DNA from: Candidatus Micrarchaeia archaeon
Lineage (GTDB): Archaea; Micrarchaeota; Micrarchaeia; Burarchaeales; JAVZCV01
Reading direction: 5' to 3'
Assembly (NCBI GenBank): GCA_038874215.1
Contig: JAVZCV010000014.1
Location: 1 to 28,917 of the forward strand
Length of the DNA stretch: 28,917 bases
Part shown: positions 2,589 to 22,229 of the stretch, in pieces
Layout of the letters: each line of letters starts with the position of its first letter
How positions within the stretch are numbered: the first letter of the stretch is position 1
Position numbers and translations under genes: made by a program
The notes under the pieces: generated by a model
Told to the model about the DNA's origin: nothing
The model's input: the letters and a program-made list of their open reading frames with translations, nothing else
The model's database searches: none

Positions 2589-2639
2589 TTCCCTGACCCA
2601 TCCGGTAAGGTTTTTCTTTCTTTGAGAAAGAAAGGGCCA
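2589..2639 (-). other. tRNA-Gly intron at 53/54 (51 nt)
   Basis: Relaxed BHB: CCCG/AGGG helix, GG|U and AA|U bulges, intron helix GGCCC/GGGUC. Confidence 0.82.
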
Positions 2640-2678
2640 CCCGGGTTGTGGGCTTGGAAGGCCCAAGTCCTAACCAGG

Positions 2679-2732
2679 TTGTCCAAACTCTTCTTTCTTT
2701 TTATGAAACTTTTCTTTTGAAAGAAAAGTTCC
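2679..2732 (-). other. tRNA-Gly D-loop intron at 15/16 (54 nt)
   Basis: BHB-like: GUCU/GGAC helix, AG|G and AA|C bulges, intron helix GAACUUUUC/GAAGAGUUU. Confidence 0.85.
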
Positions 2733-2816
2733 CTAGACTACGGCCGCATCGGCATTATATTGGCGGGATAAAAATAAAAATGGATAGATGGGAAAATGGG
2801 GGGACCGAGATTTGAA

Positions 2817-2894
2817 TTCCCGTGCCCTTTCTGTTCTTTCGGAATCGCTTTTTATTTGGGGTTGAGCACTTTCTTTTCCGAAAAAGAAAGGGCT
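2817..2894 (-). other. tRNA-Pro intron at 53/54 (78 nt)
   Basis: CCCG/CGGG central helix, AG|A and AA|U bulges, GCCCUUUC/GAAAGGGC intron helix. Confidence 0.83.
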
Positions 2895-2909
2895 CTCGGG
2901 TCTCAGGGT

Positions 2910-2973
2910 TTTCCGCAGCCTTCTGCTTTCTTTTTACGATGCAGCGCTTTTTCTTAAAAAGAAAAAGGGCTGC
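2910..2973 (-). other. tRNA-Pro canonical intron at 37/38 (64 nt)
   Basis: BHB: UUUG/CGGA helix, GG|G and AA|A bulges, CAGCC/GGCUG intron helix. Confidence 0.87.
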
Positions 2974-3065
2974 CCCAAACCCCGAAGCATTGCCAGGCTA
3001 GCCCATCCCCCCATGAAGTTATGGATTAGGTAGGAAAGGCATTTAAGTATTCGGCATGTGCGCTG

Positions 3066-3485: not shown

Positions 3486-3695
3486 ATCATGTGAATTTGC
3501 ATAAGGAGAATAAAATGATTTCTGCGAATGAGAAAATAAGAATCGGATGAAGAGAGCAATGCATGAGGATGCAAGGGCTTTAGTAACGGCAGGCTCGCAG
3601 ATCGCGTAAGCTCTCTGCATACACCCCCGTCCTATCAATGCCGTCTGCTACGGCCGCCCATCGCCACCTCGTTTTGAGGATGGCTTCGTCCTTAG

Positions 3696-3739
3696 TTAAG
3701 CCTCCGATAACCATCCTACCAAAAACTGGTTATCGGAGT
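3696..3739 (-). other. 23S intron (~E. coli 2754/2755, 44 nt)
   Basis: Interrupts GAAAGCAU|CUAAG; strict BHB AAGC/GCUU with AU|A and AA|C bulges; 12-bp intron stem CUCCGAUAACCA. Confidence 0.9.
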
Positions 3740-3953
3740 ATGCTTTCAGGACTTATCCATAAGCGCGTAGCTGCCCGGCAGTGCCAAAGACAACCGGTAG
3801 ACCAGAGGCGCCGATCCCCAGTTCCTCTCGTACTTAGGGGACCTTCCTCTCAGGTGGCGAGCACTCCCAGTAGATACTACCGAACTGTCTCGCGACGTTC
3901 TGAACCCAGCTCATGTAGGTCTTTAATGGATGAACAACCCAACCATTGGCGGC

Positions 3954-3996
3954 TTACAGCCTCGCAAACCGTCTGCTGAAAAATGGTTTGCAAGGT
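3954..3996 (-). other. 23S intron (~E. coli 2533, H91 loop, 43 nt)
   Basis: GCAG/CUGU helix, GA|A and AA|G bulges, 11-bp intron stem CCUUGCAAACC/GGUUUGCGAGG. Confidence 0.88.
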
Positions 3997-4053
3997 TCCT
4001 GCACCGCCAGGATGACCTAAGCCGACAGCGATGTACCAAACCGCGGGGTCGAT

Positions 4054-4112
4054 TCGTACAAACTTTCTTTCCTTTCTTTTGATGAAACTTTTCTTTAGGA
4101 AAGAAAAGCTTT
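4054..4112 (-). other. 23S intron (~E. coli 2477/2478, H89, 59 nt)
   Basis: Strict BHB: GUAC/GUAC helix, CC|A and GA|A bulges, both flanking helices paired. Confidence 0.9.
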
Positions 4113-4609
4113 GGGTACTCTCGCCCGCGACGAGCCTGTTACCCCCGGGGTAGCTTTTCTGACAGCTTGGGCCCCCATTAAAAGGGACACCAAGGTTCGT
4201 TAGGCCCTGCTTTCGCACCTGCGTGCCCTGCTGTGCGGCACACAGTCAGTCCTGCATTTGTCCTTAACCCTTAACGGCGGATTTCTGACCCGCCTAAGCA
4301 GAACTTTGGGCGCCCTTGTTTCCCTATCGAGGGCGTACCGCCCCAGCCAAACTATCCACCTGCCGCTGTCCCCTTCCGGGTGAGAGGCACGGTCCTCGTT
4401 GAGTGGTGTTACACTTTCGCCTCCGCATCCCCCGAGAGGAATGCCTCTGCGGCTCCCACTTACGCTCCGCAACAAAAACCATGCCCCAACAACAGGCTAT
4501 AGTAAAGCTCCACGGGGTCTTCGTTTCCCACTGGGAGTCCTCCGCATATTCACGGAGAAGTGAGTTCACCAGGTCCCGGGTAGGGACAGTGGGAGAGTCG
4601 TTATGCCCT

Positions 4610-4648
4610 TTCCACCGGCATCAATATATAAAAATGGATTGATGCCGT
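4610..4648 (-). other. 23S intron (~E. coli 1969/1970, 39 nt)
   Basis: 10-bp hairpin CGGCAUCAAU/AUUGAUGCCG inserted in GCAUGA..GGCAUAACG; relaxed BHB with 3 of 4 central pairs; register uncertain. Confidence 0.78.
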
Positions 4649-4748
4649 TCATGCAAGCCGCCAATTAAGCGGCGAGGTACTACGCTACCTTAAGAGGGTC
4701 AGAGTTACCCCCGCTCTTTACCGGCGCTTTGCTCCGTTGGAACGGAGT

Positions 4749-4781
4749 TTCGCCGAACCATTCTATATAAAGAAAGGTTCT
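4749..4781 (-). other. 23S intron (~E. coli 1854, H68, 33 nt)
   Basis: CGUC/GGCG helix, AA|A bulges on both strands, GAACC/GGUUC intron helix. Confidence 0.85.
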
Positions 4782-5724
4782 TTGACGTACCGGCAGTGAG
4801 CAGGCATCGGCCGCTATACTAAGCCTTACGGCTTTGCAGCGACCTGTGTTTTTGGTAAACAGTCGCTCTCCCCTTGTCACTGCGACCTGCGATTCCACTT
4901 GCGCAGAAACGCAGGCATGGCTTCTCCCGAAGTTACGCCACTAATTTGCCGAATTCCCTTACCCGAGTTCTCCTGACACGCCTGAGCCTTTTCAGCCAGC
5001 AACACCTGTACTGGTTCTAGGTACGGTCATGCGGAATCGTATTGGCTCCCTTTTCACGGGCTCAAGGAATTGACCGAACTGGCTTGCGCCAGCCATTCCC
5101 AAGATTAGGCTGCTTCTCCTCATAACGAGTCTCCACAGCCTTGCCTTGGTTAGACAGCCGAAGCTGCTCGGCCTATCCCCAAGCGTCAGGAACCAATATT
5201 GCGTTGCCGCGTCTATCCGCATGGCACGGGAATTTTAACCCGTTTCCCTTTCGCCACCGAGTAATTGGCTGGTGGCTTAGGACCGGCTTACTCTTGGCTG
5301 ACGAACGTTGCCAAGAAAACCGTGTGCTTTCGGCGTCCAGGATTCTCGCCTGGATTTGCTGTTACTAACACCAGGATGTTCATTCCTAATCGGTCCATCG
5401 GACCTCACGGCCCGACTTCTACCCGATCAGGACGCCCCCCTACCAGCACTTTGCTATGCAAAGTGCTCCGAGGTATCGGCACCAGACTTAGCCCCGAGCA
5501 TCTTCGGAACCTGCAATCTCGGCTGGTCCGCTATTACGCGTTGTTTAAAGGATGGCTGCTTCTAAGCCTACCTCCCAGCTGTTTTAGATTGGAGATTCCT
5601 TGTGGATTCGCACTTAGTCTGGATTTAGGGGCCTTAACCCCGGTCTCGGTCGTTCCCGTTCAGGCATGCTAGCTTACCCAGCATGCCCAACTCCTGCCTT
5701 CTACGGCGACGATGGATTCGGAGT

Positions 5725-5759
5725 TTTGTCGACCTTTTCTTTTTAAAAGAAAAGGTTCT
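5725..5759 (-). other. 23S intron (~E. coli 910, H38, 35 nt)
   Basis: UGUC/GACA helix, AA|A bulges, ACCUUUUCUUUU/AAAAGAAAAGGU hairpin. Confidence 0.87.
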
Positions 5760-5921
5760 TTGACAAAGTGGTAGAGCCTTTCGGCTCCGTGCCACTTAAT
5801 CAGTGCTCTACCCCATCGTCTGCCTCTAGCAGGGCTATTCTGAGGAATACTTTGGGGGGAACCCGCTATCGCCGAGTTCGATAGGACTTTCACCCCTACA
5901 CGCAGGTCACCTAAGCAGATA

Positions 5922-5984
5922 TTCCAGACAGCGATGGCAATTTAGAAAAACAGCCATCGCCGCTTACTAGCACTAGATGCGGGC
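5922..5984 (-). other. 23S intron (~E. coli 745-750, H35 loop, 63 nt)
   Basis: CUAG/CUGG helix, UA|A and AA|U bulges, 11-bp intron stem GCGGCGAUGGC/GCCAUCGCUGU; exon is divergent so the boundary rests on the BHB register. Confidence 0.78.
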
Positions 5985-6595
5985 CTCCACCGTCTTGGAA
6001 GACGGCTTCGCCCTGCCCACGTGTAGCTCACATCGGCTTCGGGTCTCATGAGAGTGATTAACCGCACTTTCATACGGCGGGCCTCCCTTTCGGTGCGCCC
6101 TATCGCTTTCGCTACGCCTTTCAGCTCACCACTCCCATGAACTCCCTGGCTCTTGCTTCGAGAAGAACGATGCAACCCTGTTTGGCGTTGGCTCGCTCAT
6201 CGCATCTCTGCGAATTGCTTCGCCACGCTACATTCCTTTCGGGCAGCATCGACCTGTAGTCTCTCAGTTTCAGGCTCTTTTCACTCCCCTTCCGGGGTAC
6301 TTTTCAGCTTTTGCTCGCGCTACTAGTGCGCTATCGGTCTCGGGTTATATTTAGGGTTGGATGTTAATACACCCATATTCACGCCCCATACCCGAGGGGC
6401 GCTACTCACCGCTCATCCTTCCCCATGCCTACGCCTACGGGGCTATCACCCTCTATGGCAGAGCTTTCCAGCTCTCTTCGGCTCGGCAGAAGGGATAGTT
6501 GATGAGCACCACATCTCCCACACATTACTGTGCAGGATTCAGGTTGCCCTGTGCGGCTTTCAGTCGCCCTTACTAACCGCATCCCTTTTGGTTTC

Positions 6596-6637
6596 TTAGA
6601 ATTTTGCCAACCTCATTCAAAAACGGGTTGGCAAAAT
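6596..6637 (-). other. 23S intron (~E. coli 219/220, 42 nt)
   Basis: Interrupts conserved AGGAAAA|GAAA; GGAA/UUCU helix, AA|A and AA|G bulges, UUUUGCCAACC/GGUUGGCAAAA stem. Confidence 0.87.
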
Positions 6638-6939
6638 TTTTCCTGCGGGTACTAAGATGTTTCAATTCCCCGCGTAATTACCCATTACTGGGTTATGGGC
6701 AATCCTGGGTTCAAGGGCTGCCTGCGCCTACCCCAGGCTTATCGCAGCTTGCCACGGCCCACAACTACCCGAGCCTAGCCATCCCCTGAGAGACAGCAAC
6801 AGCATCCGTGAACATGCATCGCCTCTCTTCATCCTCATGACTCTCAAGCATGAGAGCTGCCTTTCGGCGCATTCCCAACAGCGTTGGGACATGCTACTCG
6901 TGAAATGAGTAGTATGAATGTGATATGGACTCGGCGAGA

Positions 6940-6991
6940 AGTTCAGAGGGCAACCCATCTTGAACACAGATGTTTATGGGGAAGCCCTTCT
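6940..6991 (-). other. tRNA-Ala intron at 59/60 (52 nt)
   Basis: Strict BHB: UUCA/UGAA helix, AA|A and CU|U bulges. Confidence 0.88.
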
Positions 6992-7013
6992 TTTGAACTC
7001 GCGGCCTCCTCCT

Positions 7014-7045
7014 TATTTGAAACTTTTCTTTTTAAGAAAAGTTCA
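7014..7045 (-). other. tRNA-Ala canonical intron at 37/38 (32 nt)
   Basis: Strict BHB: UUUG/CAAA helix, CG|U and UA|A bulges, GAACUUUUCUU/AAGAAAAGUUU stem. Confidence 0.9.
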
Positions 7046-7596
7046 CGCAAAGGAGGCGCTCTACCACTGAGCTACGAGCCCAACCTTTCAACTGTGTTTC
7101 AAAAGAAACACAGCACAACCCCAAGAACCGAATCCACGCTCTCGCGCCTTGCACGTAAACTAAAGGAGGTGATCTATCCGCAGGTTCCCCTACGGATACC
7201 TTGTTACGACTTAGCCCCCCTCATAAAGCTCTAGTTCGACGCTACCACGAGGATAACGCCTCACTAGAACCTTACTTGGGTGACTTGACGGGCGGTGTGT
7301 GCAAGGAGCGGGGACGTATTCACCGCGCGATGTTGACACGCGATTACTAGGGATTCCAGCTTCATGAGGGCGAGTTTCAGCCCTCAATCCGAACTCAGGC
7401 TAGGTTTGGGGATTAGCTTCTCCTCTCGGAGTCGCAACCCATTGTCCTAGCCATTGTAGGCCACGTGTAGCCCGGGAGATTCAGGGCATACTGACCTACC
7501 GTCGCCCTCTCCTTCCTCCTGCTTAACGCAGGCAGTCTCTACAGAGTGCCCGTTTCAAAAGAAACGGTAGCAACTGTAGACGAGGGTCTCGCTCGT

Positions 7597-8114
7597 TTCC
7601 GGGCCTGCGGGCATCAAACTTTCAAAAATTTAAGATGAGTTTTTACAAAACCAAGAAAATCTGATGAGATGTAAAGAGCACTGCCTATGCGCTTTGTCCT
7701 AAAATTGAGTCTTTCAAGCATGTGCTCGTCTGCTTCGTCGGCTCTTGCTAGGAAGGGCAAGCCTTTGCGGATACCACCACAACCATCAAAAAAGCCTGCG
7801 AGGTATTCTGCGCTCTTTTCGTTCCTTTCTCTGAAAATATTCAAGCGCTCATTGACAACCTTCTGAAAAAACTTTTTGTAAGCGGAGTGATAGAAGTATG
7901 CCTCGTTCTCTTTTATCGTTATCTTATCCCCACGCGTTAGCCCGTTTCTGATGCACTCTGAGACGAATATTCCAACTATTTTTTTGTTTCCTGTTATCCC
8001 TATTCCGTGCTCTCCCCCTCTCGCCTTCCATAGGCCAACTACATATGCGATATTTGGAGTTAGTTTCAGCTTCATTCAATCACTCTTCAATCAACATGAG
8101 GCTGCCCACAGGCA
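7597..8114 (-). mobile_element. 16S rRNA BHB intron (~E. coli 1101/1102, 518 nt) carrying a homing-endonuclease ORF
   Basis: Removal restores AAGUCCGGUA|ACGAGCG; CCGG/CCGG helix, UA|U and AA|A bulges, 11-bp stem GCCUGUGGGCA/UGCCCGCAGGC. Confidence 0.93.
7614..8075 (-). CDS. intron-encoded LAGLIDADG-family protein
   Basis: Two LAGLIDADG-like helices, IAYVVGLWKARGG (degenerate) and EYLAGFFDGCGGI; sense to the rRNA and inside the intron loop. Confidence 0.85.
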   Translation of the reverse strand: MKLKLTPNIAYVVGLWKARGGEHGIGITGNKKIVGIFVSECIRNGLTRGDKITIKENEAYFYHSAYKKFFQKVVNERLNIFRERNEKSAEYLAGFFDGCGGIRKGLPFLARADEADEHMLERLNFRTKRIGSALYISSDFLGFVKTHLKFLKV

Positions 8115-8262
8115 TACCGGACTTAACCGGACAGCTCACACCACGAGCTGACGATGGCCATGCACCACCTCTCGGCTCGTCTGGCAAGATCTTCAGTCTG
8201 GCCTTCATACTGCCGTCTCTCCCGGTAATATTCCCGGCGTTGAATCCAATTGAACCGCAGCC

Positions 8263-8305
<43 letters not shown>

Positions 8306-8518
8306 ACCTTGCGGCCGTACTCCCCAGGCGGCAGACTTAACACCTACGCTACGGCACTGCAACAGCTCTAAGCTGTTGCAACACCACAGTCTGCATAATT
8401 TACTGCTAGGGCTACTCGGGTATCTAATCCGATTCGTTCTCCTAGCCTTCGTCCCTCACCGTCAGACGTGTTTTGGCCAAGCGCCTTCGCCACCGGGAGT
8501 CCTCACAGGATTACAGGA

Positions 8519-8575
8519 TTGTAAGACCCTTCTTTGGTGAAGCTTTCTTTGATTGCTTAATAGGAAGAAAGGTTC
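8519..8575 (-). other. 16S intron (~E. coli 694-697, h23 loop, 57 nt)
   Basis: Interrupts GGGGUAAAA|UCC; GUAA/UUAC helix, AA|G and AA|U bulges. Confidence 0.85.
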
Positions 8576-8861
8576 TTTTACCCCTACCCTGTGAGTACTC
8601 TTGGCCTCCCCCACTCTCAAGCTCCGCAGTATTTCCTGCGCGCCCCCGGGTTAAGCTCGGGGATTTCACAAGAAACTTACAGAGCCGGCTACGGACTCTT
8701 TAGGCCCAATATTCGTGGGCACCACTTGGGCTGCCAGTGTTACCGCGGCGGCTGGCACTGGTCTTACCCAGCCCTTATTCCCCAAGCGGGTTAGACTTGG
8801 GAAAAGGTGCTCCCGTAGAGCACCACTCAGAGTCCCCCCGTCACGCTTTCGCGCATTGCGG

Positions 8862-8892
<31 letters not shown>

Positions 8893-8900
8893 AGGGCCCT

Positions 8901-8945
8901 TGGACACGGTTCTGACCACCCTACTAAAACTCGTCAGAGCCATGT
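8901..8945 (-). other. 16S insertion or intron (~E. coli 329/330, 45 nt)
   Basis: Interrupts CUGAGACA|AGGGCCC; hairpin CAUGGCUCUGAC/GUCAGAACCGUG; central helix only about 2 bp. Confidence 0.75.
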
Positions 8946-9459
8946 TGTCTCAGTGCCCTTCTGGGGGCTCCAACTCCCATTGCCCCCACTGATTATCGGC
9001 TTGGTGGGCCGTTACCCCACCAACAACCTAATCAGCCGCAGTCCTTTCCTCAGGCGGGCTGGCTGCATTTCGCCAGTCCTTTTAGACCATCAAGCATTCC
9101 AGCATAGATGGCCTATCGGGTATTAGCCTCAGTTTCCCGAGGTTATCCCCGTCCTGAGGGTAAGTTGACTACGTGCTACTCAGCCGTTCGCCGCCCTCGG
9201 AAGCCCGAGAGCAGACTTGCATGGCTTAGTCGGACTCTGATAGCAGTGCCCTCCAGCAGGATCAACTGGAGTTTTCACGAATAGAGTACGCCACAAAGCG
9301 GATCAGCAGTGGAACACACTTGTTTCGTGTCGGTTCTTGAGGTCTCAGTCTAACCCAAGAGTCTTGGGTTACCATCGGTCATGTAGGCTGTAGTGGATAG
9401 AATGTTCATTGCACGAAAAAAATCGCGCTCTATTCGGCCAGGACTACAGCCGAATCGGG

Positions 9460-20602: not shown

Positions 20603-20941
20603 TCAGCGGATATATGCAGGTTGGACCGGATGCTTTGACTGCTGTTCTTTTCTTATTTTTTCGTAGTATTCAGTGTAGCGATCCCATAGGAGTTTTGCTT
20701 TTTCACCATGTACAACTTTTGTAACTACCATAGTTGGAGCAGGCCCCTTCTTATCCAAGGGCCTATAATCAACGAGAACTATGTCATTCTCTTTCATTTT
20801 GTCGGCTATTTTGCTGTCAACCAGAAGCGTAAGTAGTTTTTCGTCCCACATTTGCAAAAGAGCCTGTGTTGTTGAATCGGCAGCCACTATGTTTTTATCT
20901 TTAGCAGAAAATAACAAAAGGACCTTTCCTGGGTGGTACAT
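20603..20941 (-). CDS. hypothetical protein
   Basis: ORF from MYHPGKV; the longer track ORF extends antisense into RNase P RNA so the start was trimmed. Confidence 0.75.
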   Translation of the reverse strand: MYHPGKVLLLFSAKDKNIVAADSTTQALLQMWDEKLLTLLVDSKIADKMKENDIVLVDYRPLDKKGPAPTMVVTKVVHGEKAKLLWDRYTEYYEKIRKEQQSKHPVQPAYIR

Positions 20942-20962
20942 GAAAGAAGTTTGAAGCGTGCA

Positions 20963-20972
20963 TTTATATAAA
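20963..20972. promoter_or_regulatory. palindromic TATA box shared by divergent RNase P RNA and hypothetical gene
   Basis: TTTATATAAA is self-complementary and lies about 20-25 nt from both starts. Confidence 0.6.
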
Positions 20973-20990
20973 TTCTGCGCAGATATATTT

Positions 20991-21272
20991 GTGAGTGGCT
21001 GGTCGGCAGCTATCCGGCTTGCACGGAGGAAGTTCTGCCCATCGCGAAAGCCCCACGAAAGCCTAAGGCTTGGGACAGGAACAGAAACGAAACTGCCCGC
21101 AAAGGATGAGAATGAAGAGATGAGACGATGGGGCAAGATGAAACGTGCCTGTCTGAGGGGTGCCGTGTGCGATGCAAGGTTTTATACCGCTAAGTCGAAT
21201 GCTGCATAAAACAGAAGGCAGAGGGTTTTCTTCTATAGAGAAAACTTGCCCAAACTATGGCCGGCCACTCAT
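20991..21272 (+). ncRNA. rnpB: RNase P RNA with a 32-nt insertion in CR-V/P4
   Basis: P1 helix GUGAGUGGCUGGUC/GGCCGGCCACUCAU; CR-I GAGGAAGUUCUGCC; CR-II ACAGAAA; CR-III UGAAAC; CR-V ACAGAAGGCAG...ACUAU. Confidence 0.92.
21222..21253 (+). other. candidate BHB intron in RNase P RNA (32 nt)
   Basis: AGGC/GCCC helix (3 of 4 pairs), AG|A and AA|A bulges, GGGUUUUCU/AGAAAACUU stem; removal gives ACAGAAGGCAG|ACUAU and restores P4. Confidence 0.8.
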
Positions 21273-21297
21273 AAAAAATGCCAAGGGCGGGATTTGA

Positions 21298-21329
21298 TTG
21301 CGGGACCATTCGGCTTTTCCGAACGACCT
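21298..21329 (-). other. tRNA-Met intron at 54/55 (32 nt)
   Basis: GCGG/CCGC helix, GU|A and AA|U bulges, GGUCGUUCGG/CCGAAUGGUC stem. Confidence 0.88.
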
Positions 21330-21346
21330 ACCCGCGACATCCAGAT

Positions 21347-21398
21347 ATCCCGCGAGCGCTTTTGATTTCATTGCACATGGCTCATAACTCATACGCCG
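21347..21398 (-). other. tRNA-Met intron at 37/38 (52 nt, possibly two stacked introns)
   Basis: Insertion at the canonical site containing tandem UAUGAG copies complementary to the anticodon loop. Confidence 0.85.
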
Positions 21399-21473
21399 TA
21401 TGAGTCTGGCGCTCTAACCAGGCTGAGCTACCTTGGCATAAAATTTTTCCAGGAGATATTTTTATACTCTACC

Positions 21474-22229
21474 CTAACCTGCATCAAGAACCACAAGAAA
21501 CCCCGAGTTATTAGTGCAGTAAAGATTACAGTAGTATACAAAAGTTCCACTTCTATTCGCAAAAAATTCTATCTCTTTGCCCCTTCCCTGCGGGAAGGTC
21601 TCGTTTATACCAAAATCTTCCAAAACAAAATTATGAGGGCCGTCTATACCTACCAATCTGAGACGAACCAGCTCTTCTTTCTTGATAAAAATCGTGGAAG
21701 GGAATATTGAAAAAGAAGAAACCTCAACTACTTTTTCAATAAAGCTCGTCCCATTTAGAGTGCAGCCAGAAAAACGTGAAAGTGTTTCTATTTCTTGGTA
21801 TCCTAACTTCTTTTCATCGTTTATTATCCATGTGGGATAATGGTTGACGCCTTTCTCGTAACAATCGTTCGGGTTTTTATCGCAATCAACGTAATAAACA
21901 AACATGAAAGATGGTCCGAAAGCCTCTTTTTGCTTCTGGCAAAAATGACACCAATCGGCACCATACATCTTCACGCCTTTCCTTGTTAGGCATTTTGCAA
22001 ATTCATCCAGTTCTGATGATTGCACTTTGGGGTTCTGTTGTTTCGAATCGGTTGTCACATTTGCCTCTATATCGTTGGAGTTTGAGAGAGGAGCATGCGT
22101 TGCGTTGGCAGTCTGGTTAGCATAACCACCATTGTAAGAGCTTTTGATATCGGATTTTATTACTACTGTTTCCTCAAAACAGCCAAAAAGAAAGAGTGAG
22201 AACATAAGGAAGGGAAGAAACCTTCGCAT
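21474..22229 (-). CDS. putative lipoprotein with thioredoxin-like and cupredoxin-like domains
   Basis: Lipobox-like LFGC; KMYGADWCHFCQKQK..YPTW thioredoxin fold; C-terminal HNF...GTFVYYCNLYC cupredoxin-like segment. Confidence 0.8.
   Translation of the reverse strand: MRRFLPFLMFSLFLFGCFEETVVIKSDIKSSYNGGYANQTANATHAPLSNSNDIEANVTTDSKQQNPKVQSSELDEFAKCLTRKGVKMYGADWCHFCQKQKEAFGPSFMFVYYVDCDKNPNDCYEKGVNHYPTWIINDEKKLGYQEIETLSRFSGCTLNGTSFIEKVVEVSSFSIFPSTIFIKKEELVRLRLVGIDGPHNFVLEDFGINETFPQGRGKEIEFFANRSGTFVYYCNLYCTNNSGFLVVLDAG

Follow-up and report, generated by a model that had tools for sequence, protein, structure and literature searches.

Protein-spliced introns of the bulge-helix-bulge (BHB) type are described in archaeal tRNA, rRNA and cbf5 mRNA. 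The closest described systems to the locus analysed here are the non-canonical tRNA introns of Candidatus Micrarchaeum acidiphilum (ARMAN-2), which are cut by a three-unit epsilon2 splicing endonuclease, EndA (PMC3239211, PMC3488258, PMC12397907). These introns are short, their host genome is heavily interrupted, and the tested substrate has a relaxed motif in which one flanking helix is missing (hBH). Outside tRNA, BHB introns and processing sites were described in rRNA, in the cbf5 pre-mRNA and in the HVO_1309 5' UTR (PMC7714728, PMC2738675); in the parts of PMC7714728 that we consulted, RNase P is named only as the enzyme that removes tRNA 5' leaders. The permuted SRP RNA of Thermoproteus is an essential, universal non-coding RNA that is unusable as encoded, was missed by standard searches, and is restored by BHB cleavage and circularization (PMC4731332). 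Finally, circular segments of RNase P RNA, one of them a 34-nt segment, were found in Sulfolobus (PMC3326292), and circular RNase P RNA in Thermococcus barophilus (bioRxiv 10.64898/2026.03.23.713588). These are minor circular forms of an uninterrupted gene and their authors do not describe them as introns.

Here we examined an RNase P RNA gene (rnpB) in which the gene itself carries an extra 32 nt within helix P4, the catalytic centre of this universal ribozyme. The insert very probably is a spliced intron of the relaxed HBh' type. Unlike in ARMAN-2, the host RNA is the RNase P ribozyme and not a tRNA, and the central helix borrows bases of P4 and not of a tRNA arm; unlike in Thermoproteus, a plain intervening sequence would be removed by exon joining. 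No paper describing an intron in an RNase P RNA gene was found in the literature searched, which excluded subscription-only papers and supplements.

The interrupted RNase P RNA gene

The gene lies on the plus strand of the window (the whole stretch of DNA that was analysed, 28,917 nt), in a ~1.1-Mb DPANN genome (hereafter G000; 1.13 Mb in 38 contigs, 91% complete). Its features are as follows.

20963..20972 (+), TATA-like box TTTATATAAA, about 21-30 nt upstream of the first P1 base; that this is an archaeal promoter is inferred from spacing only
20993..21221 (+), exon 1: P1 and P2 5' strands, P3, CR-I/P4 5' strand, S-domain, P2 3' strand and the first half of the P4 3' strand (ACAGAAGGCAG)
21025..21040 (+), CR-I, GGAGGAAGUUCUGCCC, the P4 5' strand, with the bulged U at 21033
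21216..21219 (+), exon side of the central BHB helix H (AGGC); G21217-C21219 pair with G21248-C21250 in the precursor and with CR-I G21037-C21039 in the mature RNA
21220..21222 (+), 5' bulge AGA, with the predicted cut AG|A between 21221 and 21222 (the cut 21222|21223 paired with 21254|21255 gives the same product)
21222..21253 (+), the 32-nt intron
21223..21247 (+), inner helix h', in which 21223-21232 pairs with 21238-21247 (10 pairs, 3 of them G.U) around the loop CUAUA at 21233-21237; it holds the UUUUCU/AGAAAA core
21248..21251 (+), intron side of helix H (GCCC); with the preceding bases (CUUGCCCA) it resembles the CR-I strand UCUGCCCA
21252..21254 (+), 3' bulge AAA, with the predicted cut AA|A between 21253 and 21254
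21254..21272 (+), exon 2: the rest of the P4 3' strand (ACUAU) and the P1 3' strand; GGCCGGCCACUC at 21259-21270 pairs with 20993-21004

The archaeal RNase P model, Rfam RF00373, matches 20994-21234 at 73 bits (E 3e-20). This is below the gathering score of 84, and the 3' end of the model is forced into the insert. At the gathering threshold the gene is not reported at all, and only the two rRNAs and two tRNAs are seen in the window. The low score is not due to the intron alone, as 49 of 135 matches in intron-less relatives also fall below the cut-off. The P4 3' strand starts as ACAGAAGGCAG at 21211-21221, is broken by AGGGTTTTCTTCTATAGAGAAAACTTGCCCAA at 21222-21253, and resumes as ACTATGGCC at 21254-21262. 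The CR-I strand GGAGGAAGTTCTGCCC lies at 21025-21040, and after removal of the 32 nt, GGCAGACU pairs with AGUUCUGCC and leaves U21033 bulged. An earlier note, made from the sequence alone, had placed a candidate intron in the P4 3' strand, with cuts at AG|A and AA|A that restore the consensus strand and the bulged U, had pointed to a hairpin core shared with tRNA and rRNA introns, and had suggested that such genes could be scored as missing. Every checkable part of it held, although being scored as missing is shown only for this genome. In genomes without an RF00373 match no hidden rnpB was found: the CR-I pattern gave only what look like coding-sequence hits in three of them, and BLAST with exon 1 in 16 gave nothing, a search that had no positive control and so shows nothing either way.

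In order to define the limits of the insert, we read the P4 3' strand in rnpB loci of relatives from the same order and class, with genomes of about 1 Mb. The strand was unbroken in 29 of 29 loci of a first set, all of which read ACA[AG]AAGGCAG[AG]CTATGG, in all 7 readable loci out of 8 fetched (one is cut by its contig end), in 19 of the 20 lowest scorers, in 60 of 60 and in 5 of 5 further loci, and in one metagenome contig, i.e. in 121 of 122. These all read ACA[AG]AAG, 5 nt complementary to CR-I, and CUA. One of the 60 is a bacterial-type RNA on a 1.4-kb contig of an archaeal genome bin, probably a contaminant. The metagenome contig, found with the last 21 nt of exon 1, is a more distant, intron-less relative. 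A sequence-only nhmmer profile of the 29 relatives scored the gene at 146.9 bits as encoded and at 164.3 bits after deletion of 32 nt starting at 21222 (or 21223, which gives the same product). This is the best of 241 sliding 32-nt deletions (median 110.5), and among the 26 lengths from 20 to 45 nt at that start, 32 is the single peak.

Splice-motif geometry and machinery

Splice geometry was tested using the rule that the first two anticodon bases lie in the 4-bp helix and that each cut falls after the second bulge base (PMC4090602). The tRNA-Ala(UGC) intron of this window, also 32 nt long, is a strict hBHBh' motif (H 4, h' 11, h 5 pairs). At the homology-defined frame the rnpB insert has the same 1+stem+loop+stem+4+2 layout, with 3-nt bulges and an h' of 10 pairs. 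However, H has only 3 of 4 pairs, contiguous next to the 5' bulge, with one A.C mismatch, and there is no outer helix (0 pairs). The insert therefore fails the strict form, but fits the relaxed HBh' form accepted by (alpha-beta)2 and epsilon2 enzymes (PMC3239211, PMC4090602). Only 39 of 100,000 shuffles of the intron reach at least 3 contiguous pairs in H and at least 5 in h'. Of 2,400 start/length frames around the site three fit (32, 30 and 28 nt), all slides of one hairpin, and the two slid registers fold at least as well. The minimum-free-energy fold takes the 30-nt register (H = GGCA/UGCC, 5' bulge GAG), which would leave two extra A in P4. The cut sites are thus fixed by homology and not by the fold, and the local fold is not unusually stable (z = -0.97; 33 of 200 shuffles fold as well). 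In the full-length fold P1 and P2 form and the insert stands as its own hairpin domain.

The hairpin core is shared with other inserts. TTTTCT-N3-15-AGAAAA occurs 6 times in the window against 0.14 expected, and none of 100 shuffles reached 6. Besides rnpB, the copies lie in the tRNA-Ala intron (7024), in two LSU rRNA inserts (4089 and 5735) and in two uncalled multi-intron tRNA genes (2710, 2949). The latter fall at 2600-3010 (-) of the window, where at least two tRNA-like genes are broken by several inserts with CUUUCUUU/AAAGAAAG-type hairpins. One begins GGGGGGATGGGCTAGCC near 3010 and another GCGGCCGTAGTCTAGGG near 2745, and neither is called by ARAGORN or by Rfam at the gathering threshold. 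ARAGORN found no tRNA in the window, as the tRNA genes here are too interrupted for it. The tRNA-Ala gene (6930-7081, -), in the 16S-23S spacer, has its strict intron at 37/38 and appears to have a second insert of about 50 nt in the T-loop; the Rfam match (6994-7081) stops short, and the true 3' end (CTCGCCGAGTCCA) lies near 6930. A tRNA with anticodon CAU (21279-21437, -), convergent with rnpB and ending about 7 nt from it, carries inserts of about 52 nt after position 37 and about 32 nt in the T-loop. Both rRNA genes (3563-6811 and 7164-9272, -) are longer than the Rfam models, 2,109 nt against 1,478 for SSU and 3,249 nt against 2,987 for LSU, and carry many short inserts, with the LSU inserts at about 4053-4114 and 5727-5801 holding the same core.

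The genome encodes a 385-aa EndA that matches PDB 4fz2_A, the three-unit epsilon2 enzyme, end to end (E 1.3e-138), with Pfam catalytic and N-terminal domains. The epsilon2 type cuts strict and relaxed motifs in vitro (PMC3239211). RtcB is also encoded (588 bits). A single rnpB match was found in the 91%-complete genome, and the four RNase P proteins Pop5, Rpp30, Rpp29 and Rpp21 are all present with open frames, over the Pfam cut-offs. No HARP was found: the only PIN_5 match is 17-18 bits against a cut-off of 27, in a protein that looks like a winged-helix regulator. The interrupted gene therefore has to supply the RNA subunit.

One RNA run contained part of the locus. A 229-nt contig (depth 10.3) of X2, a metatranscriptome of a sediment sample from another study, lies on 21007-21222 with four other letters out of 216 (98% identity). 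It then continues with CTATGGCCGGCCC, and twelve of those 13 letters equal 21255-21266, reading straight across the predicted exon-exon junction. X2 shows no cover of the intron or of either flank of rnpB, and the missing flanks fit a stable RNA rather than contaminating DNA. Since the gene of this relative could not be seen, the contig may derive from an intron-less strain, and proves only that a very close relative's RNase P RNA has the unbroken strand. Two other runs cover only a conserved tRNA piece. Neither this nor the lack of cover of the intron and flanks in X2 is evidence of absence.

Taken together, we propose that in the primary transcript the GCC of the intron's 3' segment pairs with exon bases GGC, which belong to P4 in the mature RNA, and that a 10-bp intron hairpin forms the inner helix. 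EndA would cut both bulges and RtcB would join the exons to give ACAGAAGGCAG-ACUAUGG; only then could the P4 3' strand pair with CR-I around the bulged U. Cleavage and rejoining in this organism, the register used, and inactivity of the unspliced RNA are inferred. If spliced, this RNA adds a ribozyme to the short list of non-tRNA substrates of the archaeal splicing endonuclease and makes one essential tRNA-processing step depend on another. It also shows that standard thresholds can fail to report rnpB in intron-rich genomes.

Recurrence of inserts in rnpB

A second genome, G150, belongs to the same class but to another family; neither G150 nor G000 has a sampled relative in its own family. 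Its rnpB has an 85-nt insert at the identical position (GGCAG|U...GCCGAA|ACUACGG). H is (A)GGC with GCC(G), again 3 of 4 pairs, the bulges are AG|U and AA|A, and h' is 6 bp of different sequence (AGCCUU/AAGGCU); 4 of 100,000 shuffles match. Deletion of exactly 85 nt at that site is the best of 263 deletions (52.6 to 68.7 bits), and the length scan peaks at 85. G150 also encodes the epsilon2 EndA (66% identity).

A third genome, G151, has a 178-nt insert elsewhere in rnpB, between GUUCAAU and GCUGCG of the conserved J15/2-P2 region, made of repeated AAAGAAAGAAC units. H is 4 of 4 at the homology frame, and exact deletion raises the score from 83.7 to 127.5 bits, the best of 625 frames. This is a candidate second kind of rnpB intron site. 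Interestingly, the G150 and G151 inserts begin with the same pyrimidine/purine hairpin module (AGCC-UUUCUUUCUU...AAGAAAGAAA...). The same-site recurrence in two families and this shared module give material for asking how protein-spliced introns spread.

In both P4 cases the intron's 3' end resembles the CR-I strand (CUUGCCCA against UCUGCCCA in G000; CUGCC in G150), as it must in order to pair with the same exon bases. A speculative and rather unlikely extension is that rnpB genes of this class are recurrent targets of a mobile pyrimidine/purine-hairpin intron family, which colonised the identical phosphodiester bond in two families because an intron whose 3' end copies CR-I can borrow the P4 bases to build its own splice motif. 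The intron would then act as a built-in decoy for the catalytic helix, and tRNA 5'-end processing would be gated by the cell's tRNA-splicing capacity.

Alternative explanations and other rnpB variation

The least improbable alternative, though unlikely, is that the hairpin is retained in the mature RNA as an extra arm branching from P4. Archaeal and DPANN RNase P RNAs do tolerate lineage-specific extra hairpins, and the hairpin is self-contained in the full-length fold. However, the insert sits inside the P4 strand, opposite the bulged U, where 121 of 122 relatives' loci have no extra base. Its 3' end pairs with the very exon bases that P4 needs, the junctions have splice-motif geometry in two unrelated inserts, and the 98%-identical RNA contig lacks it.

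It is also unlikely that EndA removes the insert without rejoining, leaving pieces of about 229 nt and about 19 nt. P1 (12 bp) and P4 could hold a short 3' piece, and split and permuted RNAs processed at BHB sites are known in archaea (PMC4731332), but RtcB is encoded and the X2 contig reads across the junction as one molecule. A decaying gene, replaced by a second rnpB or by a protein-only enzyme, is improbable. A second copy could be missing from the incomplete assembly, yet both exons keep every conserved block and the P1, P2 and P4 pairings, all four protein genes are intact, no HARP was found, and the same-site insert of G150 also lies in an otherwise intact gene. An assembly artefact caused by the repeated hairpin core is very unlikely, as a second assembler's 5,066-nt contig of DNA run X1 has the same sequence over 20900-21500 with one other letter, far from the insert (although X1 is probably the source sample, and thus gives no independent DNA support in this species), the flanks are unique and fit the BHB geometry, and G150 and G151 show analogous inserts.

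Extra elements of other kinds were seen among the relatives. The P3 region of rnpB is enlarged by about 60-100 nt in four genomes (G002, G013, G014 and G017), which explains their low Rfam scores, and in G017 a roughly 40-nt element inside P3 is repeated just upstream of a neighbouring tRNA gene. G013 also has a 57-nt two-hairpin insert in the P1 3' strand (UUGCCCG|...|CCGCUCC), in which no clear BHB was found in either arrangement; it may be an intron or a retained branch. Two families, f14 and f16, carry an extra hairpin between the P2 and P4 3' strands, and in one genome, G063, that place instead holds a longer insert starting UAGCCCUUUCUUUC, like the intron module. Downstream of rnpB in another genome, G053, there is a tandem array of an 18-nt unit (CCCCCGTTAGACCCAACT), with at least six copies.
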